Below are positions 9,801 through 36,508 of a DNA stretch of 46,422 nt, piece by piece. The DNA is from Nitrososphaerota archaeon (GTDB lineage Archaea; Thermoproteota; Nitrososphaeria_A; Caldarchaeales; Calditenuaceae). The DNA is taken from assembly GCA_033581555.1 (NCBI GenBank), contig JAVQSZ010000008.1, positions 47,433 to 93,854 of the forward strand, read 5' to 3'. The notes below the pieces were generated by a model that searched no databases, was not told the DNA's origin, and was given only the letters and a program-made list of their open reading frames with translations. Position 1 is the first letter of the stretch; the number at the start of each line of letters is the position of its first letter. Made by a program: the position numbers and the translations under genes.

Positions 9801-10450
9801 CTGGGACTCCTGAGGAAGGCGTCGACGTCGTCGACGAAGACGAAGTCGAACTCCTTCCCCCTCAGCAGCTCGTAACGGTTGTAGAGGAACTTGTCGGTGG
9901 TGATGAGGACGTCGAAGTCGCCTGAGGATATCGCCAGCAGGTTCCTCTCCATCTTCGAGGGCGTCATGCCGGACGCGTAGCTCACGACCCTCACCTCCTT
10001 CCCGAGGGCCTCGACGTACCCGGAGGCCCTCTCGGCGACGTGCTGGACCAAGAGGGAGCTCGGGACCAAGAGGTAGCTCCTGAGCCCCGACGTGACGCTG
10101 AGGTAGAGGGCCATCAGGAGGCCGAATGTGGTCTTCCCGAGTCCGGTCGGCGCGACTATCGAGAAGCTCCTCCCGAGGAAGACCCTCCTCGCCCAGGTCT
10201 CCTGGAGAGACCAGGGATACGCTCCCACGAGCCTCCTGAAGAACTCCCTGAACTCCCTTACCCTCACCGAGAGCTCCAGCGGCTCCCTGTAGAGCCTCAG
10301 TTTCTTCGCCCTCGAGAGGTAGTCGAGGACCTCCTCCCTGCTCGAGGCCTCGAAGGGGACGCAGGACCTGCAGACGCCGTTGGTCAGGAGCTCCTCGTCC
10401 GAGACGTCGCCCCCGCAGTTCGGGCAGAGCCTCCTGAAGAGCATCTTCAT
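6863..10450 (-). CDS. rgy: Reverse gyrase
   Basis: N-terminal Zn finger CPNCGG..CRSC, helicase-like APTGLGKTT and VDDVD, topo IA VVESPTKA, ATDPDSEGE, SAGRVQTP, LITYHRTDS, GIGRPSTYA. Confidence 0.98.
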   Translation of the reverse strand: MKMLFRRLCPNCGGDVSDEELLTNGVCRSCVPFEASSREEVLDYLSRAKKLRLYREPLELSVRVREFREFFRRLVGAYPWSLQETWARRVFLGRSFSIVAPTGLGKTTFGLLMALYLSVTSGLRSYLLVPSSLLVQHVAERASGYVEALGKEVRVVSYASGMTPSKMERNLLAISSGDFDVLITTDKFLYNRYELLRGKEFDFVFVDDVDAFLRSPRNIDKVIELMGYDPTAVDAVLRMIRISRKRRATEEELEEYEALDREISRLRRSAGNKVLIVSGATLRARRTLRVRIFRHLFGFEPGYTLELVRNIGNYYLEGSEDVDGAVVELVRRHGGGVLVFVPQTTGLEGVERVAQLLNDSGIPAQAYKRASPRLLSKFVDGTYQALVGVASSRSPLARGLDLPETIRYVVFAGVPRREIRVEEDEYRPQMLLAVLKHVAPLLEGPEAAEALRVTGSLSRVVPTTAEVVERVRSAIESGTELDGFEGHVQDLVLQARSLLKRVMTPEWVARLSERADVQLKVSDGGFSLIVPDADGFVQASGRCSRLYVAGITRGVTVTVVDDQKAFHGLRRMLETLYEEALEPYEEEKVRRDFERVDEDRRRVVMARRGELPPERFDVIKSALVVVESPTKARTIASFFGRPARRQIGDLTVYESIGGEYVLTVAASGGHVLDLTTEGGYHGVLQYDTTFVPIYTPIMRCRECGAQFVDQKTCPNCGSSNVGSKAEVIEALRKLALEASKVYVATDPDSEGEKIGYDLYCNIRPFNDDVERLEFHEVTRRALSAALSSPRGIRDGLVEAQLLRRIEDRWVGFELSRRLWERFGRRTLSAGRVQTPVLGWVVNRTAEAKRKVPVMVAVLDDGTRLEFAKPLGYEELRALFDEGRLFAEVEEVSSEVREVHPPPPYTTDSMLRDAWFYLKMGSAEAMQAAQTLFESGLITYHRTDSTIVSTAGLGVARSYIEERYPGLFRPRTYQREGAHECIRPTKPMDERELGYYVQSGALRTAARLTRREIQLYGLIFRRFISSQMAPASVRYQTAVVRLGGNELRVERPVELVEEGFLRANPVVRVQPRVSPGSHRVRGLELRRVPAARLFTEGDLIATMKSRGIGRPSTYAKIVETLYRRRYVIQNAGRVIATKLGNEVYRYLESNYGDLVSEELTRELEAKMDAIEEGKLNYMDLLRELHQSIMAIAKRAV

Positions 10451-17047: not shown

Positions 17048-17830
17048 CTAAGCAGCGGGACCTCCGCGGCCTAGGACGTCGGAGACCGAGTAGACCTCGA
17101 TCTCGAAGTGGCGCGCGAGCTCTGAGGCCCTCTCGTCGACGAAGGGCGAGACTATCACAAGCTTCGGCCTCACGCCAGTCTCCCTCTCGTAGAGCTCGGC
17201 GATCTTCTTCAGCTCGATCACGTCGCCCTTGCTTACGCTGGACTTCACCTCGACGAGCAGGTGCTCCCTGTCCCTCACCAACACGTCCGCCTCGACCACC
17301 GCGGGACTCCCGTAGACGAAGCCCTCCCTGTCGAAGAGGCCCCACTTGGTCACCTTGCCCCCGAAGTACCTCTCGACGATCTCCTTAAGACCAGTCCTGA
17401 ACGCGGACTCGGCCATTATCCCCCACCTAGCACCGAGTGCGGAGATCTGCTTCTCCACGGCAGCAAAACCCCTGTTCATGTCTTCCCGCAGCTTAGCGAG
17501 CTCCTGGTCGTACCTAGCGAAGCCTCTGTTCATGTCTTCACGTAGCTTGTTCATGTCCTCCCTCAATCGGGCGAGCTCTGCGTCGTGCCTCTCGAACCCC
17601 TTGTTCATGTCCTCCCGTAGTTTGATCAACTCCTCGTCGTGTCTAGCGAACCCCTTGTTCATATCCTCCCGGAGCTTGTTCATGTCCTCCCTGAGCCTCA
17701 CGAGCTCTTCCTCGTGTCTGTCCAGCCTCCTCAGTATCTCCTCGAGCCCCAGAAGTCCGGCCACCGCGTACCTGAACTCCTCGTCCTCCTTCAGCAGCCT
17801 CAGCAGCTCCCTCTTCAGCTCCTGCGTCAC
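17048..17830 (-). CDS. Archaeal coiled-coil + PD-(D/E)XK nuclease-fold protein (DUF3782/paREP-like)
   Basis: ELLRLLKEDEEFRYAVAGLLG N-terminus, heptad repeats, ALGARWG, VEADVLV...LVEVKS. Confidence 0.85.
   Translation of the reverse strand: MTQELKRELLRLLKEDEEFRYAVAGLLGLEEILRRLDRHEEELVRLREDMNKLREDMNKGFARHDEELIKLREDMNKGFERHDAELARLREDMNKLREDMNRGFARYDQELAKLREDMNRGFAAVEKQISALGARWGIMAESAFRTGLKEIVERYFGGKVTKWGLFDREGFVYGSPAVVEADVLVRDREHLLVEVKSSVSKGDVIELKKIAELYERETGVRPKLVIVSPFVDERASELARHFEIEVYSVSDVLGRGGPAA
17465..17695 (-). repeat. Intragenic tandem coiled-coil repeat (six LREDMN units spaced 7/18/18/7/18 aa)
   Basis: Read directly from the translation; synonymously diverged GAGGACATGAAC-type DNA units. 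Confidence 0.9.
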
Positions 17831-20072: not shown

Positions 20073-20173
20073 GCCCCGGTAGCTCAGTCTGGTCAGAGCA
20101 CCGGCTTGGTAAACCTCGGGGCCGCGAAGGTACAGGGAGCCGGGGGTCGCGGGTTCAAGTCCCGCCCGGGGCT
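20073..20173 (+). tRNA. tRNA-Thr(GGT) with 26-nt intron at 37/38 (about 20112-20137)
   Basis: Acceptor GCCCCGG/CCGGGGC+T, anticodon stem CCGGC/GCCGG, loop TT-GGT-A, intron helix ACCT/AGGT, T-arm GCGGG-TTCAAGT-CCCGC. Confidence 0.9.
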
Positions 20174-24046: not shown

Positions 24047-24619
24047 TTGAGCGAGCTGAAGCGGAGGCCTCCGAGGAGGAGAAGGGAGGGAATCACCGAC
24101 TACAGGGCGAGGTACAGGATGGTCAAATCCACTAGACCGAGGCTCGTCGTGAGGAGGACCAACAGGCACGTGATCGTCCAGCTGGTGCAATCCAGGGCCG
24201 GAGGCGACCTGACCGTATTCACGGTGAACTCCGCATCACTCAGGAAGTTCGGCTGGAAGGCCGGGCTGAAGAACACCCCGGCGGCCTACCTCACCGGTTA
24301 CCTCGCGGGGCTGATCGCGAAGTCCAAAGGGTTTTCGGAGGCGATCGCGGACATAGGGATGAGGACGCCGTCGAAGGGCGCGAGAGTCTTCGCGGTCGTG
24401 AAGGGCGCGATCGACGCCGGGCTCTCGATACCGGCCTCGGAGGAAGTCTTCCCTGACGATTCGAGGGTTCGTGGGGAGGTCATCGCGGAGCACGTGGAGT
24501 CCCTAGGGGCGGAGGCCGCGAAGAGGTTCAGCGCCTCTGACCTGGAGACGCTCAGGAACCTGCCGGAGCACTTCGAGGAGGTCCTGGACAGGATAAGGGG
24601 ATCCGTCCGGGCCGGCTGA
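24047..24619 (+). CDS. rpl18: 50S ribosomal protein L18 (uL18)
   Basis: RRRREGITDYRAR, RLVVRRTN, NTPAAYLTG, RVFAVVKGAIDAGL. Confidence 0.96.
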   Translation: MSELKRRPPRRRREGITDYRARYRMVKSTRPRLVVRRTNRHVIVQLVQSRAGGDLTVFTVNSASLRKFGWKAGLKNTPAAYLTGYLAGLIAKSKGFSEAIADIGMRTPSKGARVFAVVKGAIDAGLSIPASEEVFPDDSRVRGEVIAEHVESLGAEAAKRFSASDLETLRNLPEHFEEVLDRIRGSVRAG

Positions 24620-24626
24620 GGGCCGC

Positions 24627-24911
24627 TCAGACGAACTCGGTCGGCCTCCTCTCGTCTCTGGCCCTGACCTTGAGGACGCCGTAGTGGATCGCGCAGGAGA
24701 TGCAGAGGTTCTCGGTGATGACGTTCTCCGCGATGTACGCGCCCATCGACTTCAGCTCCCTCGCGAGGTCACCCTTAACCAGCGAGACCCTCCTCGTGAC
24801 CCGCTGGACCTTACTCCTCGGGACGAAGGCGCCGCAGTTGTCGCACTGGATCATCGACTCCGCTCCCTTCTGGCCCTTCGCCCTCCCCCTGTTCTTCCTC
24901 TTGGCAGGCAA
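24627..24911 (-). CDS. rps26e: 30S ribosomal protein S26e
   Basis: PAKRKNRGRAKG, CDNCGAFVPR, CISCAIH, VRAR. Confidence 0.96.
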   Translation of the reverse strand: MPAKRKNRGRAKGQKGAESMIQCDNCGAFVPRSKVQRVTRRVSLVKGDLARELKSMGAYIAENVITENLCISCAIHYGVLKVRARDERRPTEFV

Positions 24912-25019
24912 TCAGCCCACCAGCTCCACAAGTCCGCGCTTCCCAATAAGCTCTCGCCCTGCCCTTCGGACACAGAGGTCCAACCGGAGCGCCGAGCGAC
25001 TGACCTTCTCGCGCGGAAG

Positions 25020-25027
25020 TTTATATC
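25020..25027 (+). promoter_or_regulatory. TATA box of tRNA-Gly
   Basis: TTTATATC preceded by purine-rich GGAAG about 25-30 nt upstream of the tRNA. Confidence 0.6.
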
Positions 25028-25050
25028 TCGAGCAGGTGAAGAACGAAGTG

Positions 25051-25138
25051 GCGGCCGTCGTCTAGCCTGGACTAGGACGGCGGGTTTCCGACCGAGGGAG
25101 ATGCCCGCAGGTCCCGGGTTCAAATCCCGGCGGCCGCA
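25051..25138 (+). tRNA. tRNA-Gly(TCC) with a short (~12-nt) intron at 37/38 (about 25091-25102)
   Basis: Acceptor GCGGCCG/CGGCCGC+A, anticodon stem GCGGG/CCCGC, loop TT-TCC-G, T-arm CCGGG-TTCAAAT-CCCGG. Confidence 0.9.
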
Positions 25139-25252
25139 CTAACCTCTCCACACTAGATCAGAAAGAGGTGATGCCAGGTTAACATGTTATTCTGAGTTCC
25201 GAGGATCCTAAATTCTAATCGGGGAGGGACTGCGTCAACCTCACTGTAGTTT

Positions 25253-25600
25253 CTAAAGTTTCCAACACTTTCCCGTTATTGTAAATCCGACTCTATCGAA
25301 AAACTCCAGGGAATAACCTCAGGGACGTAAACGTAATGAACGCTTTCCCCCGAAAGTGTTAGGCTTCCTCGGGGAATGTCTAAGTCGTGCTCGCCCTCAT
25401 ACGTAAGAAGGGACCGCTCGAGGGAAACCCCTGGTCCATCACCAGAGCCTTTGCGTAGGACAGAAGTCTATAGTCCGTACGGAAAGCAAATATCTTGTGA
25501 TATCCGGCCGAATATACATCGCGTGCCACACCTTTTCGAGGGTACCTCGTGGGTTAGTCGTTCAGCCCAGAAATTTGGGCGCTCCGGCGCGGCGTGGAGA
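25253..25600 (-). pseudogene. Degenerate LAGLIDADG-type endonuclease fragment
   Basis: Minus-strand pieces across frameshifts and stops: KIFAFRTDYRLLSYAKALVMDQGFPSSGPFL, then HYVYVP, then YSLEFFDRVGFTITGKCWKL*. These resemble the NTD..LL..v..lL...Gi and F...IGF.i.RK..KL pattern; lower GC. Confidence 0.45.
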
Positions 25601-25772
25601 TCGGACGAAGCGTTCGTGGAGCCTATTTGGGTGACCTTCCAGTATATCCCCGGAGAGGTTACGATGTCGGTGTTCGATGAGCATTCGCCGGTCGGCCGGA
25701 TGACGACCTGACACGCGATGAGCACCCAGATCGGAGGGTGACGTACGTAATTCATCACTGTAAAAGAACAGT

Positions 25773-25794
25773 GGTTCAGGTTCCCCGCGGCCGC
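25773..25794 (+). repeat. Degenerate direct copy of the tRNA-Gly 3' end (possible old att site)
   Basis: GGTTCAGGTTCCCCGCGGCCGC versus tRNA 25117-25137 GGTTCAAATCCCGGCGGCCGC. Confidence 0.4.
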
Positions 25795-25888
25795 GGCGGC
25801 GCTCTACCTCCAGCTATCGGGTCGACGGCGTGCTGGAAAGTTCGGATCAAAACAAAGCGAAGGACCGTTGCTGGGTCAGCGGAGCAGC

Positions 25889-26065
25889 TCAGAAGTCCTC
25901 CTTGATGATCGTCTTCCTGTTGTTGGCCTGGCACCTCTTCACCGCCTTCATCACTGCCTCCTTCACGAGCTCGTTGAGGCCCTCGAGCGCGTCCTCCCTG
26001 AGCCTTATCCCCTCAGGGAGCAACTCTCTGACCTTCGTCTCCACGACCAGCGAGTCCCGTGGCAA
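25889..26065 (-). CDS. Histone-fold protein with truncated alpha3 (58 aa; not in ORF track)
   Basis: Manual translation MPRDSLVVETKVRELLPEGIRLREDALEGLNELVKEAVMKAVKRCQANNRKTIIKEDF; histone RKTxxxxD motif at the C-terminus; host-like codons; AT-rich TATA-like element at about 26095-26109. Confidence 0.85.
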   Translation of the reverse strand: MPRDSLVVETKVRELLPEGIRLREDALEGLNELVKEAVMKAVKRCQANNRKTIIKEDF

Positions 26066-26169
26066 CTCCGCTCATTAGGTCGGGCGAAGCTCACAATTTA
26101 TGCGTTTAAGCCGGAAATGACGGGATGGGCGGACCGATAATACCTGAAAAACACGTAGATCGGGTCGGT

Positions 26170-26346
26170 TTAGGCGAAGCGCCTCAGGACCCTCTCGAGG
26201 GCATCCCTGTCCGAGAGGACCGCGTAGAGGACCCTGTCGGCCAGCTCCCGCATCGTGAGGCCCCTCTCGAGCGCTTGGCGCTTCAGCATCCCGTGGGTGT
26301 CCCTCCTGACGTAGATGACCTCCCAGTGCTCGTCCCTCTCGGTCAT
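26170..26346 (-). CDS. Ribbon-helix-helix-type DNA-binding protein (58 aa; not in ORF track)
   Basis: Manual translation MTERDEHWEVIYVRRDTHGMLKRQALERGLTMRELADRVLYAVLSDRDALERVLRRFA; ATGA overlap with the capsid stop. Confidence 0.75.
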   Translation of the reverse strand: MTERDEHWEVIYVRRDTHGMLKRQALERGLTMRELADRVLYAVLSDRDALERVLRRFA

Positions 26347-27332
26347 GTCAGCCTCAGTCTCGCGACGGCCTTGGGCTCCGCGACCTTCGTTGCGACGTGC
26401 ATGTAGGCATCTATCCCCGTCAAAGTGCTGCTGACGTCGACCGGCTCGACGATCAGGCTCTGGTAGACGACGCCGACCAGCGACCTCTCAGGGTTCACCA
26501 GCAAGACCCTCTCCCTCGGGACTACCGACGTGACGTGGAAGTCGATCCCGACCGTCGACCTCGACTGCATCCCGGTGGTCTTGTCGAGGGACTCGCCGAA
26601 CATCAGGCTGTCGACGAACTTCTGGTCCTTCAGGAGGTCGTTGTACCTAGCCGGGTGGAGGAAGCACCTGTAGCTGCCGTAAGACGGCGTGAGGTCGGAG
26701 CCGTCGATCGCGGCGCGGAGGTCCAGCAGGTGATCGAGCCTGAGGGGGCCCGCGACCGTCGCGTCCTCCGCTACCTCAGAGGACCTGAGGCCCTCGTAGA
26801 GGCCGTAGACGTGCTCGGTGGCCTTCACCATGATCGCCTCCCCGACGCTCCTCGTGTAGGACTCGACGACCTGCCAGTTGGCGGAGTTGAGGAAGCTCAC
26901 GTCCCAGAGGACCCTGGCCCTGATCCTCCGCCCGTCGGCGTCTAGGTCCGTGTCGATCTCGATGTACCTCGGCGGGGTCGAGACGTCCGGCGTCACGGCA
27001 CCCTTCGCGTCGAAGATCGCTAGGACCTTCGGGACGACCGGGACCTTCACCTTCGCCTCCCTGACCTCGTACCAGGTCCCCATCGCCCTCCAGACCTGCT
27101 TTGGGTAAGCCGCGTCGACCACCTGTCTCACGACCTCCGCGACCGCACCCGCGTCGCTGCTCGTCAGAGCGTGCTTGGCCCAGTACTGGACGAACTTGTT
27201 CCCCATAACCCTCTTCGGGATGTGGCTGAGGAGCTGGGAGTCGACGTCGAGCATCGAGTAGCACCTCCTGCTCAGCAGCGCGGGGTAGACTGCCGCGAGC
27301 TCCTCTAGCCTGGACTTGAGCTCCTCGATCAA
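26343..27332 (-). CDS. Major capsid protein, HK97-like fold
   Basis: 329 aa following portal, protease and decoration genes; E-loop-like KVKVP..., A-domain-like FLHPARYNDLLK, GIDFHVTSVVP, C-terminal KVAEPKAVARL. Confidence 0.75.
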   Translation of the reverse strand: MIEELKSRLEELAAVYPALLSRRCYSMLDVDSQLLSHIPKRVMGNKFVQYWAKHALTSSDAGAVAEVVRQVVDAAYPKQVWRAMGTWYEVREAKVKVPVVPKVLAIFDAKGAVTPDVSTPPRYIEIDTDLDADGRRIRARVLWDVSFLNSANWQVVESYTRSVGEAIMVKATEHVYGLYEGLRSSEVAEDATVAGPLRLDHLLDLRAAIDGSDLTPSYGSYRCFLHPARYNDLLKDQKFVDSLMFGESLDKTTGMQSRSTVGIDFHVTSVVPRERVLLVNPERSLVGVVYQSLIVEPVDVSSTLTGIDAYMHVATKVAEPKAVARLRLT

Positions 27333-27790
27333 ACCAGCACCACCCTGATCTCCTCTCCGGGGGACTGGGCGTCGTCGAGCGCGATCCCCGAGACGCTCCT
27401 CGTCTCCCTCTCGACCGCGTCGGAGCCCGATGCCGAGTAGGCCTGAGGGTGCGAGGGCTCTCCCACCTGGACGAACCCTCCTGCTCCGGCAGCGACCAGT
27501 CCGCCCCTCCTCACCGGCGAGGCGGCCCTGGCCCTGACCACGTTCCCGACGAAGACGACCGCCCTCGTCCCCCTCTCGCCGGGCCTGAGCTCCTGTCCCT
27601 CCGCGAAGACCGCGACCGCCCTCCGACCTCCATCGGTCGGCGGGATCAGAGACCCGTCCTCATCGCTGACCACCAACGGCTCGCCTCCCCTCAGCGCGGT
27701 CCCCGAGGTGTTCCTCACGACGTAGCTCGCCACCTCACCTGCCCTCCAGAGCAGGGTCCCGGCCCTTCCGATCCCTTCAGGTGCAGGCAC
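27329..27790 (-). CDS. Putative capsid decoration/cement protein
   Basis: Gly-rich beta protein (ALRGGEPLVV, VRRGGLV, GIALDDAQSPGEEIRVVL) immediately upstream of the capsid gene, as for DUF2190/beta-tulip cement proteins. Confidence 0.62.
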   Translation of the reverse strand: MPAPEGIGRAGTLLWRAGEVASYVVRNTSGTALRGGEPLVVSDEDGSLIPPTDGGRRAVAVFAEGQELRPGERGTRAVVFVGNVVRARAASPVRRGGLVAAGAGGFVQVGEPSHPQAYSASGSDAVERETRSVSGIALDDAQSPGEEIRVVLV

Positions 27791-28817
27791 GACACGACAC
27801 CTCCTTCGCGCCCGAGGAGTTCGACCTCGGGCTCTTCGAGAGGTGCTCCCTGAGGAGCCTAAGGACGCTCGCGAGCTGGGCCCCGCTGACCCACGGCCCC
27901 TCCGGCGCGGGGAGGAGCCCGAGGGCGTAGGAGTGCCTGCAGGAACAGACCTCCATCTCCAGCCTCCTCGCGACCTCCCTCACGACGTAGGCCGGAACTC
28001 GGCGCGGGACTTCGAAATCGAGGGCCCTCAGGAAGTCCGAGTGGTCACAGGACCCGGAGGGACTCGGCTGAGAAGTGATCGCGGCCGAGGGCGGGTGAAG
28101 TCCCGCGAGCCCGGTGAGCGAGAACGCCGCGAGACCTAGGGCCCCCTGGGACGCCGAGGACAGAGGCTCAACGCCGGTCCCTTCGAACGCGGGCTCCAGC
28201 TCCAAGCACAGCGAGAGGGCCGAGAAGTGGACGCCCCTCCTCTCGCAGACGGTGCCCGAGTCGGTTGCCCTACAGGACTCGCTCCTCGCCCACTCGACGA
28301 CGCTCGCGCCCCTGAAGGCCCCCGAGAGGGCCAGCGCGTGGACCCTGGGCTCCTCTATGGCCACGACCGCCTCGAGCCTGCCGTCTTCGGCCTCCGCGTC
28401 GAGGACCGTCCCTGCCCACCTGGTCACGTCGATCCCCCACTTCTCGGCGTAGGCGTCAGCGACGTCAGGGAAGAGTAGCGCGACCGGTGTAGGGAAGAGC
28501 AGGTGGTCGACGTCGACGGGCTTCAGGGCTAGCGTCCTCGCGCCCCTCACGAGCTCCTCCTCAGACATGACGTACGAGGGCTCTCCCCTGCTCCTCCCCG
28601 CCCTGACCGCGACGACCCTGACGACCTTGTCGCGGAGCGCGCCGGAAGGGACCCAGCTGAAGGAGTGCGACGCTGCTCGCGGCCTCCGGGCCTCGGAGGA
28701 CCTCACCAGCTCCGCCAGCTCCCTCGCCTTCGACCTCGCCTCGGGGCTCTCGTAGCCCCGCGAGGCGACGAGCCTCAGCAGCTCAGCCCTCACCTCGCCC
28801 ACGCTCTTGGAGCTCAA
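27777..28817 (-). CDS. Prohead maturation protease (HK97/Mu-type serine protease) with C-terminal extension
   Basis: EEEL...TLALKPVDVDH (His), GTVLDA, GAFRGASV (Ser), ALSL...PAFEGT; position between portal and capsid. Confidence 0.72.
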   Translation of the reverse strand: MSSKSVGEVRAELLRLVASRGYESPEARSKARELAELVRSSEARRPRAASHSFSWVPSGALRDKVVRVVAVRAGRSRGEPSYVMSEEELVRGARTLALKPVDVDHLLFPTPVALLFPDVADAYAEKWGIDVTRWAGTVLDAEAEDGRLEAVVAIEEPRVHALALSGAFRGASVVEWARSESCRATDSGTVCERRGVHFSALSLCLELEPAFEGTGVEPLSSASQGALGLAAFSLTGLAGLHPPSAAITSQPSPSGSCDHSDFLRALDFEVPRRVPAYVVREVARRLEMEVCSCRHSYALGLLPAPEGPWVSGAQLASVLRLLREHLSKSPRSNSSGAKEVSCRACT

Positions 28818-28818
28818 G

Positions 28819-30063
28819 CTACCACCCCTGCTCCCTCAGGAAGCCTCCGGAGAGGCAGTAAGTCCTCTGGGAGGCCTCGGGCTGGCCTCCTTGGAGCCTC
28901 CAGCCCGCGAGCCTGAGCATCTCCCTCGCCTCCTCGACCGAGATGATCGGAGGGTTCCGGTCGTCGCCCCTCGCGGCCGCTATGACGTCCTTCACGTCCC
29001 ATGAGGGGGCCTGGGGCTCGCCGAAGACCAGCCTCACGCCGGAGGGCCCCGGGTCGATGCCGTGCTGCCTGAGGACCGTCGAGATCATCTCCTCGTACTG
29101 GGAGCTGAGGAAATCCCTGAGGAGGGCGACTTCGGGCTCGAGCGTCTCGATCGCGGCCTGGGCGCTGGCGTAGGTGAACCCGGTGTAGGTGATCAGCCTG
29201 ATCAGCGGGTTCCTCAGGCCTGTGACGACCTGCCTGTCGAGGTGCTCGATCAGCTCGTAGAACCTCGTCCTCGAGTCGACCTTGACCTCCAGCTGCTTGA
29301 CGTCGAAGTCCACCACGAGGTCCTGCCCCACCATCGCCTGCTCGTAGGCCTCCTTGAAGGAGTCCCTCGCAGCCCTCGGGACGACGAAGACGCTCCTCTG
29401 CGGGTACTTCTCGACGAGGACCCTCGCGGCGTTGTCGATCCTCTCCTTGACCTCGAGGAGCGGCGGCCTCCTGACGGTCCTCCCCCTCACCGAGTAGCCG
29501 ACGCCAGGCCTCGCGAGGTGGTTGACCAGTCCCTCTCCGAAGGCTCCCTCGTCGACGGGGTTGAACCTCAAGTGCCAGACTTCCTCCGCGTCCAACTCGA
29601 CCGTCCTCCCGTGCCAGCTCTGGACGTACTTCAGGGGCCTGCCGTCGGGGCCGCGGACCACCGACCTGACGCTCGAGAGCGGGACGTAGTGGATCGTGTT
29701 GACTTTACCCCTCGGGACCAGGTTGAGGAAGGCGTTGCCGCTGAGGACGACGTCCCTCGCGACCTTCATGTGGACCTCGACGAACTTGTTCCTCCTGAGG
29801 AACGAGTCGACGACCCTGAGGAGCTCCCCGTCCTCGCCGACCAGGTAGTACCTCGCGCCGATCCTCGCGACTATCGAGTCGACCGCGAACTTGACGTAGC
29901 TGTCCCTCCTGTACCACTCCACGAGGAGGCCGAAGTCCGGGTCGGAGTGCTCCCTGTAATGGTAGTCCACGGACGCGATCACGCCCGCTCGGTGGGAGCT
30001 CCCCTCAGACCCGTCGCGACCCGCGACGGCCCTCGCGAGCGCCCTCATCACCAGAGCCAGCAC
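28819..30063 (-). CDS. Phage portal protein
   Basis: YVKFAVDSI, DVVLSGNAFL, EEVWHLRFNP..GAFGEGL, C-terminal ISVEEAREML; 414 aa, first gene of the head operon. Confidence 0.85.
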   Translation of the reverse strand: MLALVMRALARAVAGRDGSEGSSHRAGVIASVDYHYREHSDPDFGLLVEWYRRDSYVKFAVDSIVARIGARYYLVGEDGELLRVVDSFLRRNKFVEVHMKVARDVVLSGNAFLNLVPRGKVNTIHYVPLSSVRSVVRGPDGRPLKYVQSWHGRTVELDAEEVWHLRFNPVDEGAFGEGLVNHLARPGVGYSVRGRTVRRPPLLEVKERIDNAARVLVEKYPQRSVFVVPRAARDSFKEAYEQAMVGQDLVVDFDVKQLEVKVDSRTRFYELIEHLDRQVVTGLRNPLIRLITYTGFTYASAQAAIETLEPEVALLRDFLSSQYEEMISTVLRQHGIDPGPSGVRLVFGEPQAPSWDVKDVIAAARGDDRNPPIISVEEAREMLRLAGWRLQGGQPEASQRTYCLSGGFLREQGW

Positions 30064-30197
30064 GCCCGCACCTCCGGTCGAGCGGACTTCACTCTTCTGC
30101 CAAAACTGGTAGATCTAACACAACTGAGGTTACGATGACTACTGCTCCTGCGTGACGCGCATAATACCGGACGAACTCGCCGAGCGGCCCGCTTTCG

Positions 30198-30218
30198 CAC
30201 CGATATGTGGAGTCGGTG
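30198..30218. promoter_or_regulatory. Inverted repeat CACCGA-N9-TCGGTG in the divergent intergenic region (candidate operator)
   Basis: Perfect 6-bp arms 12 nt upstream of the RHH gene start. Confidence 0.3.
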
Positions 30219-30230
30219 TGGCGGAGGGGC

Positions 30231-30401
30231 ATGCCCGGGTACCACGTGACGATCTACGTCGACGAGGAGCTCCTGAGGAGGATCGAGGAGATGAGGGGCG
30301 ACGTCCCGAGGAGCAGGTACATCGCGAAGCTGATCAGGCTGGGCCTCTCGGTCGTGGAGGAGTCCGAGAGGAGGGCCGCACGCGCGCCGCTATACAGGTG
30401 A
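30231..30401 (+). CDS. CopG/RHH-family transcriptional regulator
   Basis: HVTIYVDEELLRRIEEMRGDVPRSRYIAKLI; GGAGGGG before ATG 30231. Confidence 0.82.
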   Translation: MPGYHVTIYVDEELLRRIEEMRGDVPRSRYIAKLIRLGLSVVEESERRAARAPLYR

Positions 30402-30455
30402 AGTGCGTCGCGGCTACCGTGTCAGAGTCCAGAAATCCCTTCGGGCGAGTCTCTG

Positions 30456-31385
30456 GTGGCGATGAGGTACGTCGGGATCGGGAGGGAGTCGACGCAGGGG
30501 AACCCCGTGGCTCCGCAGGTCTTCGTCGACCCGAGGAGGTTCGAGGTCATGCCGGTGGTGGAAGAGAGGGCTATCGAGACCGTCGGGAGCAGGTTCCCGA
30601 GACTGAAGCACCTGGGAGGCCTCAGGGTCGAGGGCGAGGTCGAGGGGCTCTTCGGACCGGACGCGTTCTCGATGCTGGCGCTGGCGATGACGCTCGGGAA
30701 AATAGAGTCGACGGGGTCCGATGGCTACTCCGTCCACACCTTCAGCCCGGTCGAGAGGTGGGAGAGCTTCCCGACCTTCACGGTCGAGCTCAGGGACGAA
30801 GGGGTCACGAGGGTGGTCGCGGGGGCCTTCGGCAACTCGATCGAGCTGAACGTTAGGCCCGACGAGCCCGTGAGCGCGACGCTGGAGATCCTAGGGCTGA
30901 ACGAGCTCCCGGGAAGCCCCAGGTCCCCGAGCTTCTCGAGAGTCCACCCCGTGAGGCCGGAGGACGTCGTCTGCCTGATAGGCGGAGAGCCGGTCGAGCT
31001 GGAGGAGTTGACCCTGAGGGTCGAGAACGACCTCTCCTCGGACCACTACGTCATCGGTTCGAGGACGCTCAGGAGGCACGAGCTCGGAGGGCTCAGCGTC
31101 ACGGGCACGTTCTCCGGGAGGTTCGGGAGCAGGGCGCACCTCGACAGGTTCCTCTCCGGCCAGGAGACGTCGGTCGCGGTGAGGCTGAGGAGCGGCTCGA
31201 TCACACAGGGCATCGACAGGGAGGTGGTCGTGGAGGTTCCTAGGGTCTATTACTCGACCTGGAGCTGCGAGGTAACGCCGTCCGAGAGGTCGGTCCAGGA
31301 GGTGGAGTTCAGGGCGCTCGCGACCCCGCAGGGCGAGCCTCCGGTGAGGTTCAGGGTCCAGACCGACGAGCAGCTGCCGGGGTGA
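30456..31385 (+). CDS. Tail tube (major tail) protein, siphovirus type
   Basis: RYVGIGRESTQG N-terminus, VEGEV, HTFSP, PTFTVE, LTLRVENDL, VTGTF; leads the tail module. Confidence 0.8.
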   Translation: MAMRYVGIGRESTQGNPVAPQVFVDPRRFEVMPVVEERAIETVGSRFPRLKHLGGLRVEGEVEGLFGPDAFSMLALAMTLGKIESTGSDGYSVHTFSPVERWESFPTFTVELRDEGVTRVVAGAFGNSIELNVRPDEPVSATLEILGLNELPGSPRSPSFSRVHPVRPEDVVCLIGGEPVELEELTLRVENDLSSDHYVIGSRTLRRHELGGLSVTGTFSGRFGSRAHLDRFLSGQETSVAVRLRSGSITQGIDREVVVEVPRVYYSTWSCEVTPSERSVQEVEFRALATPQGEPPVRFRVQTDEQLPG

Positions 31386-31389
31386 GGCC

Positions 31390-31716
31390 TTGCCCTTCAG
31401 GGTCGAGGCCAACGGCAGGTCCTACTCGGTGAGGCTGAGGGCTAGGGCCTGGCCGTACCTCCAGACGCTCGCGAGGGCGCTGACCGATGCCCCGCCCAGC
31501 GACGACAGGATCGAGCTCGCGGAGAGGAAGGTCCTCGAGATCTGCGTCGAGCCCTTTCCCGAGGGCGACGAGGACGTGGTCCTGGCTAAGGTGATGGCGC
31601 TCTACGCCTCGCTGATGAGGGAGGCGGCCGCGAGCTTTCGGGAGGCAGGAGGTGCTCGCGCTCGGAAGAGTGGCGGAGAGGTTCGGGAGGAGGCCCTCCG
31701 AGATGCTGAAGGGTAG
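31390..31716 (+). CDS. Tail assembly chaperone (gpG-like)
   Basis: Position after tail tube; ICVEP motif; codon usage turns atypical after ...AGC TTT CGG. Confidence 0.6.
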   Translation: MPFRVEANGRSYSVRLRARAWPYLQTLARALTDAPPSDDRIELAERKVLEICVEPFPEGDEDVVLAKVMALYASLMREAAASFREAGGARARKSGGEVREEALRDAEG

Positions 31717-31801
31717 GCTCGAGGACCTCCTGCTGGACCTTTTGGTGGCCCGGGAGCTCTCCCTGGACGACAGGAGGAGGTGGAGGGAGCTACGGAGGTG
31801 A
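31637..31801 (+). CDS. Tail assembly chaperone extension (gpT-like) in the +1 frame; not in ORF track
   Basis: Open frame FGRQEVLALGRVAERFGRRPSEMLKGRLEDLLLDLLVARELSLDDRRRWRELRR* with host-like codons; its TGA overlaps the next ATG (TGATG). Confidence 0.7.
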   Translation, partial: FGRQEVLALGRVAERFGRRPSEMLKGRLEDLLLDLLVARELSLDDRRRWRELRR

Positions 31802-32199
31802 TGGTCAGGGGCCTCGAGGAGGCCCTGAGGTCCTTAGACCCGAGGAACGTCGCGGCCGCGGAGGAGAGGCTGCTGGAGTCGCTCGCGAGGCTCGCCGCTT
31901 CGAGAGCATCGCAGTACGCCCCGAAGAGGACCGGGAGGTTGGCCGCGAGCGTCTGGGCGAGGAGGCTGGGCTCGATGAGGCTCTCGGTGACTCCGGGCGT
32001 GAGCTACTGGCCCTACGTCGAGTTCGGCGTAAGGCCCTTCAGGCTCGGGGCTTCGGTCTACGTCGGCGGCGTGGGCTTCAGGTTCGTCGACGTCCATCCG
32101 GGGATCAGGCCGCAACGCTTCCTGAGGAGGGCCGCGAGCGAGTCCCTGCGGGACCTCCGCGAGCTGGTGAGGTCGCTGCTCCGTGAGCGAGGCGTATAG
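31801..32199 (+). CDS. HK97 gp10-like neck/tail completion protein
   Basis: VRGLEE, APKRTGRLAAS, YWPYVEFG, HPGIRPQRFLRRA. Confidence 0.82.
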   Translation: MVRGLEEALRSLDPRNVAAAEERLLESLARLAASRASQYAPKRTGRLAASVWARRLGSMRLSVTPGVSYWPYVEFGVRPFRLGASVYVGGVGFRFVDVHPGIRPQRFLRRAASESLRDLRELVRSLLRERGV

Positions 32200-33778
32200 G
32201 ATAGGGATAGAGTTCGTCGGGAGGGACGACGCCACCGACGAGATAGCCTCGGTCTCGGAGGGGCTGAGGAGGCTCGGCGAGGCCAACGAGGAGGTGGTCG
32301 CGAGGGCGAAAGAGGTCGTCAAGCAGTCGAAGGAGCAGAGGACGGTCCTCAGGGCGGTCCAGGAGGAGTCGCAGGTCTTCGGGGAGAGGGCGCAGTTCGT
32401 AGCGAGGCAGCTGAGCGAGGTCGCGGGGCTCGGCGAGTCGGTCCCGAGGGTCATCACGGCCCTCGACGCCTCGATGACGAGGCTCCACGCGGCGCAGCTG
32501 GTCCTCGCATCGGTCCAGGAGAGGCAGGCGGTCCTGCTGAGGGAGCTGAACGCGGAGTTCGGGATACAGGCGTCCACGGCCGAGGAGGCTGCGAGGGCGC
32601 TGAGGGGGATGCTCGAGGCGGGAGAGGTGAGCGGGCCCGCTGCGGAGCGGGTGAGGGAGGCCCTGAGGAGCGTCGAGGAGGTCCAGAGGCAGCTCCAGAA
32701 GGCGAGCGGCGACGTCGAGGCCTCGATGAGGAGCTTCCAGGCCCAACTCGTTGCGGTCGGACTGAGCTCGGTCGAGCTGGTCCCGAAGTTCATGTCGGTC
32801 GTGAACGGGCTCTCGGCGGTCGTGGCCCTCTCGCCCACGCTGAGCTCCGCGCTCGGCGCGTTGAGGGCGGCCTTCTCAGCGCTCTACGTCTCCATGGGCC
32901 CCGTCGGTCTGATTCTGGCAGGTATAGGGGCGGCCGCGGCTCTGGTCGCGGCAAACTGGGAGAAGGTCGCTCCGGTCCTCGAGGGCGTCGCCTCATCGAT
33001 CAGCTCGGTGCTCGGTCCGGCGCTCGAGTGGTTGTTGAACGTCGTCCTCACGCCGATCAGCTCGTTCCTTAGCTCCGTCCTCTCGAAGGCCCTCGAATGG
33101 GTGCTCGGTCAGGTGGGGACGTTCGCGCGAGCCGCGGAGGCGCTCACGACAGCGCTGGGCTGGCTCTGGAAGAACGTGCTCGAGCCCCTGGCCGCGTTCC
33201 TGATCGGACAGCTCGTGAACTCCTTCGCCACGGCCTCGGGGTTCATGGAGGCCGCGACCTCGACCTTCAAAAAGCTCGGGGAGACGGTCTCGTGGGCCTG
33301 GAACTACGTCCTGGTGCCGTTCGTCGAGTCGGTCGCCGGGCAGGCGGTCTCCGCGGTGAGGGCCTTCGGCGAGGCGCTAGGATGGCTCTCTGGGGCCGCG
33401 TCGAGGACGTTCTCAGCGATTCACAGCGCTGCCGAGTCGTTCCTGAGGCCCGTCCTGGACCTGATCAACTCGATGGTCTCCGGCATCAGCTCGGCCTTCG
33501 AGTGGCTTCACAACCAGCTCGTGGGCGGTTCGATCGTCCCGGAGATGTGGACCGAGGTAGTCAGGTGGACCGAGTGGGGACAGTCCGAGACCCTCGAGGC
33601 CGTTGAGAGGTTGATCTCATCGCTCGGAGGTCTCGGGCCTAGGCCGTCGAAGCCGATAACCCTGAACGTCACCCTCAACGTCAACGCCGGCTCGGTCGGC
33701 GAGGTCGACTGGGAGGTCGTCGCGGAGAGGGTCAGCAGGGCGATGCTCCACAGGATCAGGTCTGCGGGGCCCCTCTGA
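32183..33778 (+). CDS. Tail tape measure protein
   Basis: 531 aa Ala-rich helical; GPVGLILAGI..NWEKV, periodic Trp repeats (LEWL, LGWLW, VSWAW), LVGGSIVPEM, C-terminal NVTLNVN. Confidence 0.85.
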   Translation: MSEAYRIGIEFVGRDDATDEIASVSEGLRRLGEANEEVVARAKEVVKQSKEQRTVLRAVQEESQVFGERAQFVARQLSEVAGLGESVPRVITALDASMTRLHAAQLVLASVQERQAVLLRELNAEFGIQASTAEEAARALRGMLEAGEVSGPAAERVREALRSVEEVQRQLQKASGDVEASMRSFQAQLVAVGLSSVELVPKFMSVVNGLSAVVALSPTLSSALGALRAAFSALYVSMGPVGLILAGIGAAAALVAANWEKVAPVLEGVASSISSVLGPALEWLLNVVLTPISSFLSSVLSKALEWVLGQVGTFARAAEALTTALGWLWKNVLEPLAAFLIGQLVNSFATASGFMEAATSTFKKLGETVSWAWNYVLVPFVESVAGQAVSAVRAFGEALGWLSGAASRTFSAIHSAAESFLRPVLDLINSMVSGISSAFEWLHNQLVGGSIVPEMWTEVVRWTEWGQSETLEAVERLISSLGGLGPRPSKPITLNVTLNVNAGSVGEVDWEVVAERVSRAMLHRIRSAGPL

Positions 33779-33824
33779 CGAGGCCGCGAGCCGTTTATCT
33801 CTGGGATGACCGAAGGTCCGGCGG

Positions 33825-34406
33825 ATGGCTCAGCGCCCCGACGAGCTGATCAGGTGTTTCGCGGCAATCGACGTCTTCACGCCGGAGATAACCAGGGCGA
33901 TCTCGAACGTCGGGAGGGAGCTGATCGAGGCCGGCCTGATCGCGAAGCAGGTGGACCCGGAGACGCTCCACGTCACGCTCCAGTTCTTCGGCGAGCAGCC
34001 CCCTGAGGTCGTCGAGAGGCTGAAGGAGGAGCTCTCCGGGATCAGGTTCAGGCCCTTCACCGTCAAGCTCACGGGGATCGGCTACTTCCCCGGCGGAGGG
34101 AGGATCAACGTCGTGTGGGTGGGCGTGCAGGACCCGAGCGGCGAGATGCACGGCCTCCAGAGGACGGTCGTCGAGAGGGCTGCTAAGCTCGGACTCAGGC
34201 CAGACAAGGAGTTCGCGCCGCACATAACGATCCTGAGGGTCAAGGGCGTCAGCAACAAGCCGAAGGTCCTCCAGGCGATCGGAAGGCTCTCGGCCGTCGA
34301 GATCGGCGAGGTCCGCGTCGACAGGTTCAAGCTGAAGAGGAGCTTCCTGAGACCTGAGGGGCCGCTCTACACGGACCTGCTCGTCGTCAGGTCCTCGGAG
34401 GACTGA
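33825..34406 (+). CDS. thpR: RNA 2',3'-cyclic phosphodiesterase (2H family)
   Basis: RCFAAID, two HxT motifs (LHVTLQFFGE, PHITILR), RINVVWVG, GPLY; TTTATC element upstream suggests its own promoter. Confidence 0.92.
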   Translation: MAQRPDELIRCFAAIDVFTPEITRAISNVGRELIEAGLIAKQVDPETLHVTLQFFGEQPPEVVERLKEELSGIRFRPFTVKLTGIGYFPGGGRINVVWVGVQDPSGEMHGLQRTVVERAAKLGLRPDKEFAPHITILRVKGVSNKPKVLQAIGRLSAVEIGEVRVDRFKLKRSFLRPEGPLYTDLLVVRSSED

Positions 34407-34408
34407 GG

Positions 34409-36508
34409 TCAGACGGGGACCCTGTAGAGGCTCATCGAGTTCAGCGTCACCGAGATCGAGCTCATCGCCATCGCTATCGCTGCGTAGACCGGGTTGAGGA
34501 GGACGCCCAGCGGGTAGAGCACGCCCGCGGCGACGGGGATGAGGGCGACGTTGTACGCGAAGGCCCAGAAGAGGTTCTGCTTGATCTTCCTCACCGTGAC
34601 CCTGCTGAGGTCGATCGCCCTCACGACGTCCCTCAGGTCGTCTCCGAGGAGGACGAGGCTCCCGGCCTGCTTCGCGAGGTCGGTCCCGGAGCCCATCGAG
34701 ATCCCGACGTCAGCCTCGACTAGCGCCGGCGCGTCGTTGATGCCGTCCCCGACCATCACCACCACCTCCCCAGACCTCCTCAGCTCCCTGACGAACTCGG
34801 CCTTCTGGTGCGGGAGGAGCGAGGCCCTGAACTCCTCGATCCCGACGCGGTCAGCAACGGCCCTCGCGGTCTCCACGCTGTCCCCCGTCAGCATCAGGAC
34901 CTTCATCCCCCTCGACTTCAGCGACCCGACGACATCGCGGGCCTCCTCCCTAGGGACGTCGAGGAGTCCCATCGCGCCGATAGCCGTCCCGTCCAGGCCG
35001 ACCGCGACCGCCGTGAGCCCCGAGGCCTGCATCTCCGCGATGACCGACCTCAAGCCCTCAGGCACCTCGACGCCCTCCGACTCGAGGAAGGCCGCGCTCC
35101 CGACCCTGACCGTGGAGCCGTTCAGCCTCGCGACCACGCCCCTCCCAGCGACGACCGCTCCCTCTCTCAACCCGACGAGCTCGACGCCTCTCGACCTCGC
35201 GTGTTCGAGGACCGCCTGCGCGATCGGGTGGTTGGAGGCGGACTCCGCGGACGCGGCCAACCTAAGGACCTCTTCCTCGCTGAACCCCTCGGCGGCGACG
35301 ACCCTCACGACCCTCGGCCTGCCCCTGGTCAGGGTCCCCGTCTTGTCGAAGACGACCGCTGTCGCCCTCCTCAGCGACTCGAGCGCCTCTCCGGACCTGA
35401 TCAGGATTCCCCTCCTCGCGGCCCTCCCCGCGCTGACCATGATCGCAGCCGGCGTCGCGATCCCGAGGGCGCAGGGGCAGGCGATGATCAGCACCGAGAC
35501 CGCGACCAGCATCGAGAAGCTGAACGGCATCCCGGCCACCAGACCCCAGTAGGCCGAAGCTCCGAGCGCTACGAGGACGACCACCGGGACGAAGACCGAG
35601 GCCACCCTGTCGGCGAGCCGTTGGAGCGGGACCCTCGAGAGTATCGCCTCCTGGACGGTCCTCAGGACCTGCGAGAGCGTCGTGTCCTGACCTGTCCTAA
35701 CAGCCCTTACCTCGATCAGTCCGGTGAGGTTGACCGTCCCCGCGATGACCTCGTCACCTACCCTCTTCTCCACGGGCGCGCTCTCGCCGGTCATGGCCGA
35801 CTGGTCCACGCTGGTCGAGCCCTCGACGACGATGCCGTCGACCGGTATCCTCTCCCCTGGCCGCACTACCACCAGCTCGCCGACTTCGACCTCCTCCGCC
35901 GGGATTGAGACCTCCCGGCCGTCCCTGACCACGACCGCCCTGTCCGGGTGGAGCTCGTAGAGCGACCTGACCGCCTCCTCGGCCCTGACCCTTACCCTGT
36001 GCTCGAGGGTCCTGCCGAGCAGGATGAAGCCCACGATCAGCGACGACTCGAGGAAGTAGTACCTGTGCTCCCCCGGAGGAGGTTGGACCAGCTGTGGGAC
36101 GAGCCCGAGGTCCTGGAGCGCGACGAGGGCGCTGTACGCCCACGCGGTCGTGGTCCCTATCGCGATCAGGCTGTCCATGTTCGCCTGTCTTGACCTCAGA
36201 GCGTCGATCAGGCCCCTGTAGAACCTGAGGCCCGCGACGAACTGGACCGGCGTCGCGAGGGCGAGCAGGACGAGGCCCATCGAGTGGTGGTCCGGAAGCG
36301 GTCTGAGGAGCTCGAGGAGGCCGATCAGGGCACCCGCGGAGAGGCTGAACGCGACGAGGGCCTTCAACCTCCTCAGCTCGACCTCCGGCTCGAGGAACTG
36401 GAGCATGCAGGACCTGCTGCAGAAGTGGTAGAGCACGCCTCCGCGTTCGACCGTGAACTCGGACTCCTGCTCGTCGACGTACATCCCGCAGACGACGTCC
36501 CTCGCCAT
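34409..36508 (-). CDS. copA: Cu(I)-translocating P1B-type ATPase with N-terminal YHS/TRASH domain
   Basis: [42 protein letters not shown] and MAMSS. Confidence 0.95.

Follow-up and report, generated by a model that had tools for sequence, protein, structure and literature searches.

The minus-strand open reading frame (ORF) at 25889..26065 of the window, the whole 46,422-nucleotide stretch of DNA that was analysed, encodes a 58-residue protein with the signature residues and predicted monomer fold of an alpha3-truncated histone. With a probability of roughly 85%, we consider it to be the host's own histone of the face-to-face (FtF) type, which would be transcribed from a promoter-like box of its own and wrap DNA as a toroidal tetramer alongside a canonical histone encoded in the same genome. 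The gene is an ordinary chromatin gene of its host, a hot-spring archaeon, and merely adjoins a virus-like gene cluster (Table 1).

Table 1. Coordinates of the histone gene, its flanking signals and the neighbouring virus-like cluster.
Feature	Position	Strand	Basis or remark
Alpha3-truncated histone CDS including stop, FtF type by signature	25889..26065	-	ORF, purifying selection, fold, signature residues
Histone start codon TTG	26063-26065	-	ORF listing
Histone stop codon TGA	25889-25891	-	ORF listing
A/T-rich promoter-like box (TATA/BRE-like)	26095..26109	-	TTAAACGCATAAATT, about 30 nt before histone start
T5 run	26147..26151	-	About 20 nt past RHH stop; in 4/6 loci of the genus (G000, G027, G024, G025)
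RHH-like gene, 58 aa	26170..26346	-	Overlaps capsid gene end by 4 nt; last gene of the cluster
Head-tail virus-like cluster	26343..33778	.	Pfam and PHROGs matches
Capsid-like, 329 aa	26343-27332		Cluster member
Scaffold-like	27329-27790		PHROG 8e-5
Portal	28819-30063		Pfam 2.4e-5
Tail tube/minor tail	30456-31385		PHROG 3.7e-26
Neck1/tail-completion	31780-32199		3.4e-13
Tape-measure-like	32183-33778		Cluster member

The reading frame is a conserved coding sequence

The initial annotation had proposed a 58-aa ORF below the usual length cut-off, and the ORF listing returned precisely this interval and the quoted translation, with TTG as the start codon. An in-frame TAA TGA lies two codons 5' of the TTG, so that a longer reading is impossible. 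We excised the orthologous loci of 30 histone copies from 8 genera (174 nt each) and found the frame open for 58 codons in 30/30, in every case ending in KEDF followed by a stop. Within the window's genus the frame starts with TTG (6/6 loci); outside it, ATG takes that position (24/24 loci). Across the 30 loci, variable sites numbered 35, 14 and 57 at codon positions 1, 2 and 3, respectively, of 58 each. The dN/dS ratio, taken from the 138 of 435 pairs that passed a dS filter of 0.05-3, had a median of 0.09 and a maximum of 0.24. The ORF is a real coding sequence under strong purifying selection and no chance frame.

The nearest relatives that carry a name come from metagenome-assembled genomes labelled Aigarchaeota, Caldarchaeales, Thaumarchaeota or Nitrososphaerota, and from Caldiarchaeum subterraneum. 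Orthologues are variously labelled 'hypothetical protein' (NCBI), 'histone H3/H4' (JGI) and 'DUF1931 domain-containing protein' (UniRef).

The predicted fold is that of an alpha3-truncated histone

Three groups of solved structures recur in the comparisons below: HLp (PDB 9QT0), a tetrameric FtF histone from Leptospira perolatii; HTkC (9F2C), the FtF histone of Thermococcus kodakarensis (PMC11390915); and HBb (8FVX and 8CMP), which the Foldseek descriptions give as the dimer histone of Bdellovibrio. When AlphaFold2 was supplied with 31 close relatives, the resulting model had a pLDDT of 69.9, alpha2 was only partly formed and the best Foldseek match had an E-value of 0.07; all of the top rows were nonetheless histone-fold chains. 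A second model, based on an alignment of 80 diverse relatives from 416 representative clusters that an exhaustive search recovered at E ≤ 0.001, reached a pLDDT of 88.3. It has the alpha1-loop-long alpha2-loop-alpha3 order of the histone fold, with helices at residues 9-15, 24-47 and 55-57, close to the helix map that had been drawn from the translation. The failure to predict a histone fold had been named beforehand as grounds for abandoning the proposal; the top structural matches are all histone-fold chains.

Two features of the second model are diagnostic of the alpha3-truncated group. Its alpha3 comprises 3 residues (55-57) with the chain ending at 58, the group being defined by an alpha3 of 3-4 residues. 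Its alpha2 comprises 24 residues and shows a 4-residue gap relative to the genome's own canonical histone, in line with an alpha2 that is 4-5 residues shorter in alpha3-truncated than in nucleosomal histones.

Foldseek returned no match at E ≤ 0.001 for this model (best 1.8e-3). The leading entries were HLp (9qt1/9qt0; TM 0.85-0.89, rmsd 1.2-1.6 Å), HTkC (9f2c; TM 0.87, rmsd 1.1 Å) and HBb (TM 0.82-0.85), with NF-YB (TM about 0.45-0.55) ranked below all three. VIA-align gave Z scores of 7.8-8.2 and rmsd values of 1.0-1.4 Å for seven alpha3-histone entries from HLp, HTkC and HBb, followed by a drop to eukaryotic and HMf-type histones at Z 5.7 and lower (HMfA/B, about 5.4-5.5). As modelled, the fold is specifically that of an alpha3-truncated histone. 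A search of the viral structure library BFVD yielded nothing at E ≤ 0.001, the best entry being A0A516LIY4 (E 0.039, 20% identity). As a lead only, the ESM Atlas returned small clusters of 57-62 aa at 0.91-0.94 that are unnamed or partly labelled PF00808 or PF09123.

A face-to-face signature distinguishes the protein from dimeric histones

Sequence searches placed the protein in the same neighbourhood. Queried alone against the PDB, it matched 9QT0 (3e-5), 9F2C (0.003) and 8FVX/8CMP (about 0.008). A profile of 31 relatives matched HTkC (9F2C, 1e-8) and HLp (9QT0, 3.4e-8), followed by HBb (8FVX/8CMP, 3.5e-6), NF-YB (from 2.7e-4) and, at E 0.24-0.48 only, HMfA/B. The match to Pfam PF00808 (16.2 bits, E 0.013) lies below the curated cut-off of 21.4, and alpha3 has 3 residues as against about 10, so we rejected an HMf-type nucleosomal histone. 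Together with the fold matches, the profile ranking agrees with the initial annotation, which had favoured a short-alpha3 histone of face-to-face or bacterial type over the HMf type.

The monomer fold does not separate FtF histones from dimer-type alpha3 histones, because the VIA-align scores of HBb (Z 7.8-8.1) and of the FtF structures (8.1-8.2) are tied. We therefore turn to individual residues. In Haloferax volcanii D4GZE0, the most conserved FtF residues are R41, N45, R47, T49 and D54 (Schwab et al. [quoted passage not shown] The window histone has R44, N48, R50, T52, D57 and a terminal F58 at identical spacing. All six are invariant among 31 close relatives, and in a set of 80 diverse relatives conservation of each of the first five reaches at least 90%. 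FtF histones end one residue past the motif Asp, which lets their C-terminal carboxylate pair with the arginine of the interface, and D57-F58-stop was found in 30/30 loci. The RxTxxxxD motif that structures loop L2 in alpha3-truncated histones is present (R50, T52, D57), and alpha1 carries the basic residues K11 (K or R in the 31 relatives) and R13 (invariant). In the profile alignment R44 falls on R45 of HTkC, the tetramer arginine, whose replacement (R45A) leaves HTkC a dimer by SEC-MALS (bioRxiv 10.64898/2025.12.06.692711), and the HBb residues that align with R44 and N48 are S and D. Given this signature, the alignment with HTkC R45 and the residues of HBb at these two positions, we file the window protein as a face-to-face histone by its sequence.

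The alternative that survives best, although we judge it unlikely, is an alpha3 histone that acts as a DNA-bending dimer like HBb (Bd0055) and forms no wrapping tetramer. HBb and the FtF structures match the monomer model equally well, and the protein carries RKT (R50-K51-T52), a motif that, according to Schwab et al. (PMC11390915), occurs in bacterial dimers and in nucleosomal histones and is less well conserved among FtF histones. However, bacterial dimer histones lack the two FtF residues R48 and N52 (HMM numbering; PMC11390915), and both counterparts, R44 and N48, are present and widely conserved here; by these residues the protein does not fit the HBb-like class. The profile likewise favours HTkC and HLp over HBb, and descriptions of the dimer class in PMC11390915 concern bacteria only.

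Viral histone architectures were also considered and rejected. Nothing follows alpha3 that could correspond to the C-terminal tetramerisation helix of a phage histone, and only 8 residues, one of them basic (R3), precede alpha1, where viral FtF histones have a lysine-rich N-terminal tail of 5-40 aa.

Some members of the wider family (proteins P0076-P0219) are longer. Among the best 150 representative matches to the family profile, 36 are 97-228 aa in length with two matched stretches and appear to be tandem alpha3-histone doublets; another relative, P0089, has 720 aa and six matched stretches.

Proposed working and comparison with known histones

The working that we propose for the face-to-face histone of the window is built on the analogy with HTkC and HLp, both of which bind DNA and wrap it around a closed tetramer. 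Like them, the protein would dimerise through its histone fold, and a pair of such dimers would form a closed toroidal tetramer, held by a salt bridge from R44 to the C-terminal carboxylate of F58 and by N48 and R50, and DNA would wrap around this tetramer in contact with loop L2 (R50-K51-T52) and the alpha1 basic residues K11 and R13. Because the genome has a second, canonical histone, the two would share the organisation of the chromatin, as in Thermococcus, where T. kodakarensis encodes HTkA/B in addition to HTkC.

HTkC (TK1040, PDB 9F2C) is the closest counterpart. The two proteins are alike in size (58-59 aa), HTkC is the best profile match, and the structures superpose with a TM of 0.87 and an rmsd of 1.0-1.1 Å at 32-33% identity; both hosts are thermophiles that also encode canonical histones. 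HTkC differs in having E where the window histone and most FtF histones have N48, and the lineages are distinct (Thermococci versus Aigarchaeota/Caldarchaeales). For HTkC, the tetramer and DNA wrapping have been demonstrated; it is reported to compact DNA about twice as much as hypernucleosomes, to be highly expressed and to impair growth when deleted. The window histone, in comparison, is known from its sequence and a monomer model, and would on this analogy be an abundant protein.

HLp (PDB 9QT0-2) is the best single-sequence match in the PDB, with 35-36% identity, Z 8.2 and an rmsd of 1.2 Å over 55 residues, and shares the ...R...N.R.T....DF end. It differs in being bacterial, in its length of 65 aa with a short N-terminal extension, and in having RTT in place of RKT. 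The haloarchaeal HVO_0196 (D4GZE0), compared through published residue numbers only, has the same R-x3-N-x-R-x-T-x4-D-x-end spacing and the alpha1 Lys 11; another study calls the halobacterial protein an acidic miniature histone (10.1101/2025.06.26.661778), whereas the window histone is rich in basic residues. HBb (Bd0055 of Bdellovibrio bacteriovorus, PDB 8FVX and 8CMP) has the same alpha3-truncated monomer fold and the RKT motif, but S and D replace R44 and N48, identity is 25-27%, and HBb is a dimer that bends DNA (PMC11390915).

The canonical HMf-type histone of the same genome lies on contig C1 (G000:C1:204004-204189; L048 1459-1698, minus strand) in an ORF of 79 aa. Canonical histones of this type, including the C1 copy, have the histone fold and RxTxxxxD in common with the window histone, and differ from it in a full alpha3 and in an alpha2 that is four residues longer. 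Aligned with hhalign, the C1 copy and the window histone show a weak profile relation, with an E-value of 3.3e-4 and a probability of 38% over 39 columns; PF00808 scores the former at 44 bits and the latter at 16.

The histone is a host gene that follows the order and not the virus-like cluster

The initial annotation had left two origins side by side, a host chromatin protein or a factor tied to the neighbouring element, for instance in DNA compaction or silencing. We compared the occurrence of the histone and the capsid gene in 76 genomes of the order, which represent 15 genera and include 43 of high quality. The histone has exactly one match in 72/76 genomes and in all 43 of the high-quality set. 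The four genomes without a match are 81-89% complete, and one of them (G040) was recovered with the profile, which matches 55/55 genomes that are at least 85% complete. The capsid gene was found in 14/76 genomes and 3/15 genera. Genes that neighbour the histone in the window occur within 1.5 kb of it in 0/24 loci of other genera, where the recurrent neighbours are instead housekeeping genes: FBPase_3 in 11/30 loci, and a metallo-beta-lactamase/RMMBL hydrolase in 11/30. The largest cluster of neighbours (25 loci) consisted of stop-to-stop frames that overlap the histone on the opposite strand and was discarded. A nucleotide tree of the 30 histone copies, which carries no support values and is descriptive only, grouped them by genus and kept family f1 together, as expected for vertical descent. 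With the histone in 72/76 genomes, the capsid gene in 14/76, and the two adjacent in a single genus, the very comparison that had been proposed as a test of a link to the capsid cluster refutes that link, and the host alternative stands.

The virus-like cluster has no terminase or integrase within 26170-33778 that we could see, and may be either a provirus in decay or a particle system that has been domesticated. It occupies the same place across the genus, with capsid identities of 76-95%. The RHH-like gene at its end has no Pfam or PHROG assignment. In genus g2 an RHH gene also follows the capsid gene, on contigs that lack the histone, which identifies RHH as the last gene of the element and places the histone just outside it. 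The same-genus genome G022 is missing a segment corresponding to about 26347-32743 and keeps only RHH and the C-terminal tape-measure-like part of the cluster.

As had been claimed, the histone is co-oriented with the capsid and RHH genes at a distance of roughly 100 nt (measured, 104 nt to the RHH ORF). The order is capsid - RHH - histone in G000, G027, G024 and G025. In G022, which has no capsid gene, it is Ig-like-domain gene - histone - RHH - C-terminal tape-measure-like part - LigT, and in G023 it is Ig-like-domain gene - histone - four host-type genes - RHH - capsid, the four being DUF3782/PDDEXK_10, a class-III aminotransferase, an HtrA-like protease and a GNAT gene. The histone is thus beside RHH in 5/6 loci of the genus. 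On its other side, the flank varies among S26e, cytochrome bd oxidase and the Ig-like-domain gene. Further afield, genus g2 retains the capsid-RHH pair (33-37% identity) on contigs separate from that of the histone in 2/2 genomes, and the distant capsid homologues of genus g14 are on contigs other than the histone's in 6/6.

Conceivably, the histone moves together with the cluster and serves it, for example by silencing the element or by compacting DNA that is to be packaged. Such a tie would suit the shared orientation and short gap, the direct capsid-RHH-histone adjacency in 4/6 loci of the genus, the RHH-histone pair that survives in G022 despite the lost capsid genes, and the changing flank on the histone's far side; there is also precedent, as Caudoviricetes have virus-encoded FtF-like histones (bioRxiv 10.1101/2024.12.06.627149) and extra FtF histones occur on halobacterial plasmids (PMC11390915). 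We nevertheless regard this reading as distinctly improbable, and it is largely refuted by the distribution described above. In the other capsid-bearing genera the two genes are on different contigs, and the capsid gene of g2 is accompanied by RHH and not by the histone; in G023 four genes of host type lie between the histone and RHH. The promoter-like box of the histone recurs in genera without the cluster nearby. No PHROG family matched the histone or RHH, and of 253 pattern matches among IMG/VR viral contigs none was confirmed as a histone relative, in a pattern-based search that distant relatives may escape; the same kind of search confirmed no relative of the capsid protein. The histone also lacks the N-terminal tail of viral FtF histones. 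Within 24600-34600 we found no direct repeats beyond chance-like imperfect matches of 14-28 nt, no flanking direct repeat around the histone, and no copy of the tRNA-Gly 3' end. The adjacency of histone and cluster is a genus-level accident of where the element lies.

Two minor observations concern this region. A second, partial RHH-like copy (L044 13787-13840; 89% over 18 aa) is present at a contig end in G027, 3.6 kb beyond the histone and past two cytochrome bd oxidase genes. The window also has a gene of the DUF3782 and PDDEXK_10 nuclease family at 17048-17830, and the paralogue that lies between histone and RHH in G023 (L043 10155-10862; about 48-51% identity in translated matches) suggests that the family is mobile or prone to recombination.

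Promoter-like and terminator-like signals

The TATA-like element that had been reported before the gene corresponds to the A/T-rich box of Table 1. The box is nearly identical in G000, G027, G024 and G025, and a similar A-rich box is found at the same aligned place in G023 and G022 as well as in genera g2 and g3, even though the sequences that lie further upstream are unrelated. Since the box recurs in g2 and g3, where the upstream neighbour differs, it is probably the histone gene's own promoter, and the leader would be very short. Transcription termination in archaea uses oligo-T, and the T5 run between RHH and the box may be a signal of this kind, at which the capsid/RHH transcript would stop ahead of the histone promoter. 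A scan of 25700-26400 for promoters and terminators of bacterial type returned 0 and 0, which is uninformative as its models are not archaeal. A search for sequencing runs listed DNA from hot springs and no RNA.

As the histone lies beside the cluster's last gene in 5/6 loci of the genus, transcription may read through from the cluster into the histone gene. One could go further and suppose that the cluster has been immediately upstream since the ancestor of the genus, that a late capsid-RHH transcript runs through the weak T5 into the histone, and that activation of the cluster thereby raises the level of FtF histone and hyper-compacts host or packaged DNA. We give this extended scenario hardly any credence; if it were true, a domesticated or cryptic capsid system would be coupled to the chromatin state of its host.

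A histone-fold protein with another role and no DNA binding, as the literature suggests for DUF1931 pseudodimers, is just as implausible to us: one public source labels an orthologue DUF1931, and not every histone-fold protein organises genomes (Schwab et al., PMC11390915), but searches with the Pfam model for DUF1931 (PF09123) recovered neither the protein (E ≤ 1) nor any place in the whole genome (E ≤ 10). The protein has also kept RxTxxxxD with its K51, as well as K11 and R13, the basic residues of alpha1, and DNA is bound and wrapped by both HLp and HTkC, its nearest solved relatives. We accordingly rejected the DUF1931 assignment and treat that name, on the orthologue and on PDB 9QT0, as a source label.

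A known kind of histone in the Aigarchaeota/Caldarchaeales

The observation of a histone is correct and its biology is ordinary, as this is a known kind of host chromatin protein: the histone class has been described, and public sources already label orthologues 'histone H3/H4' or 'DUF1931'. Our literature search found no paper on FtF histones in Aigarchaeota or Caldarchaeales, although such proteins may appear in the supplementary tables of PMC11390915; term look-ups in PMC11390915 and 10.1101/2025.06.26.661778 gave no mention of Aigarchaeota, Caldarchaeales or Nitrososphaeria. The gene adds a clean, universally conserved FtF histone to the thermophilic Aigarchaeota/Caldarchaeales lineage, with little import beyond annotation, in genomes that pair one canonical with one FtF histone as Thermococcus does. 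It also illustrates how a core chromatin gene of 58 aa escapes both ORF length cut-offs and the Pfam threshold.

Genomic context of the window

The window is a piece of archaeal chromosome, with genes for reverse gyrase, SRP54, Pus10, TruD, the ribosomal proteins L19e, L18 and S26e, and three tRNAs. The reverse gyrase (6863-10450) has helicase, topoisomerase and zinc finger parts and indicates that the host is a hyperthermophile or thermophile. Between the tRNA-Gly gene and the histone lies a 749-bp spacer (25140-25888) without a match in the 6 other genomes of the genus; it contains no Rfam family, and its 111-aa ORF (25376-25711) has no Pfam match. In G024 the distance from histone to S26e is only about 310 bp. 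Rfam placed tRNAs at 25051-25138 (50 bits) and 20073-20173 (60 bits), of which ARAGORN left the former unnamed and missed the latter. Both are probably intron-containing archaeal tRNAs, and by eye the tRNA at 25051-25138 is a tRNA-Gly(UCC) whose anticodon is followed by a short intron.
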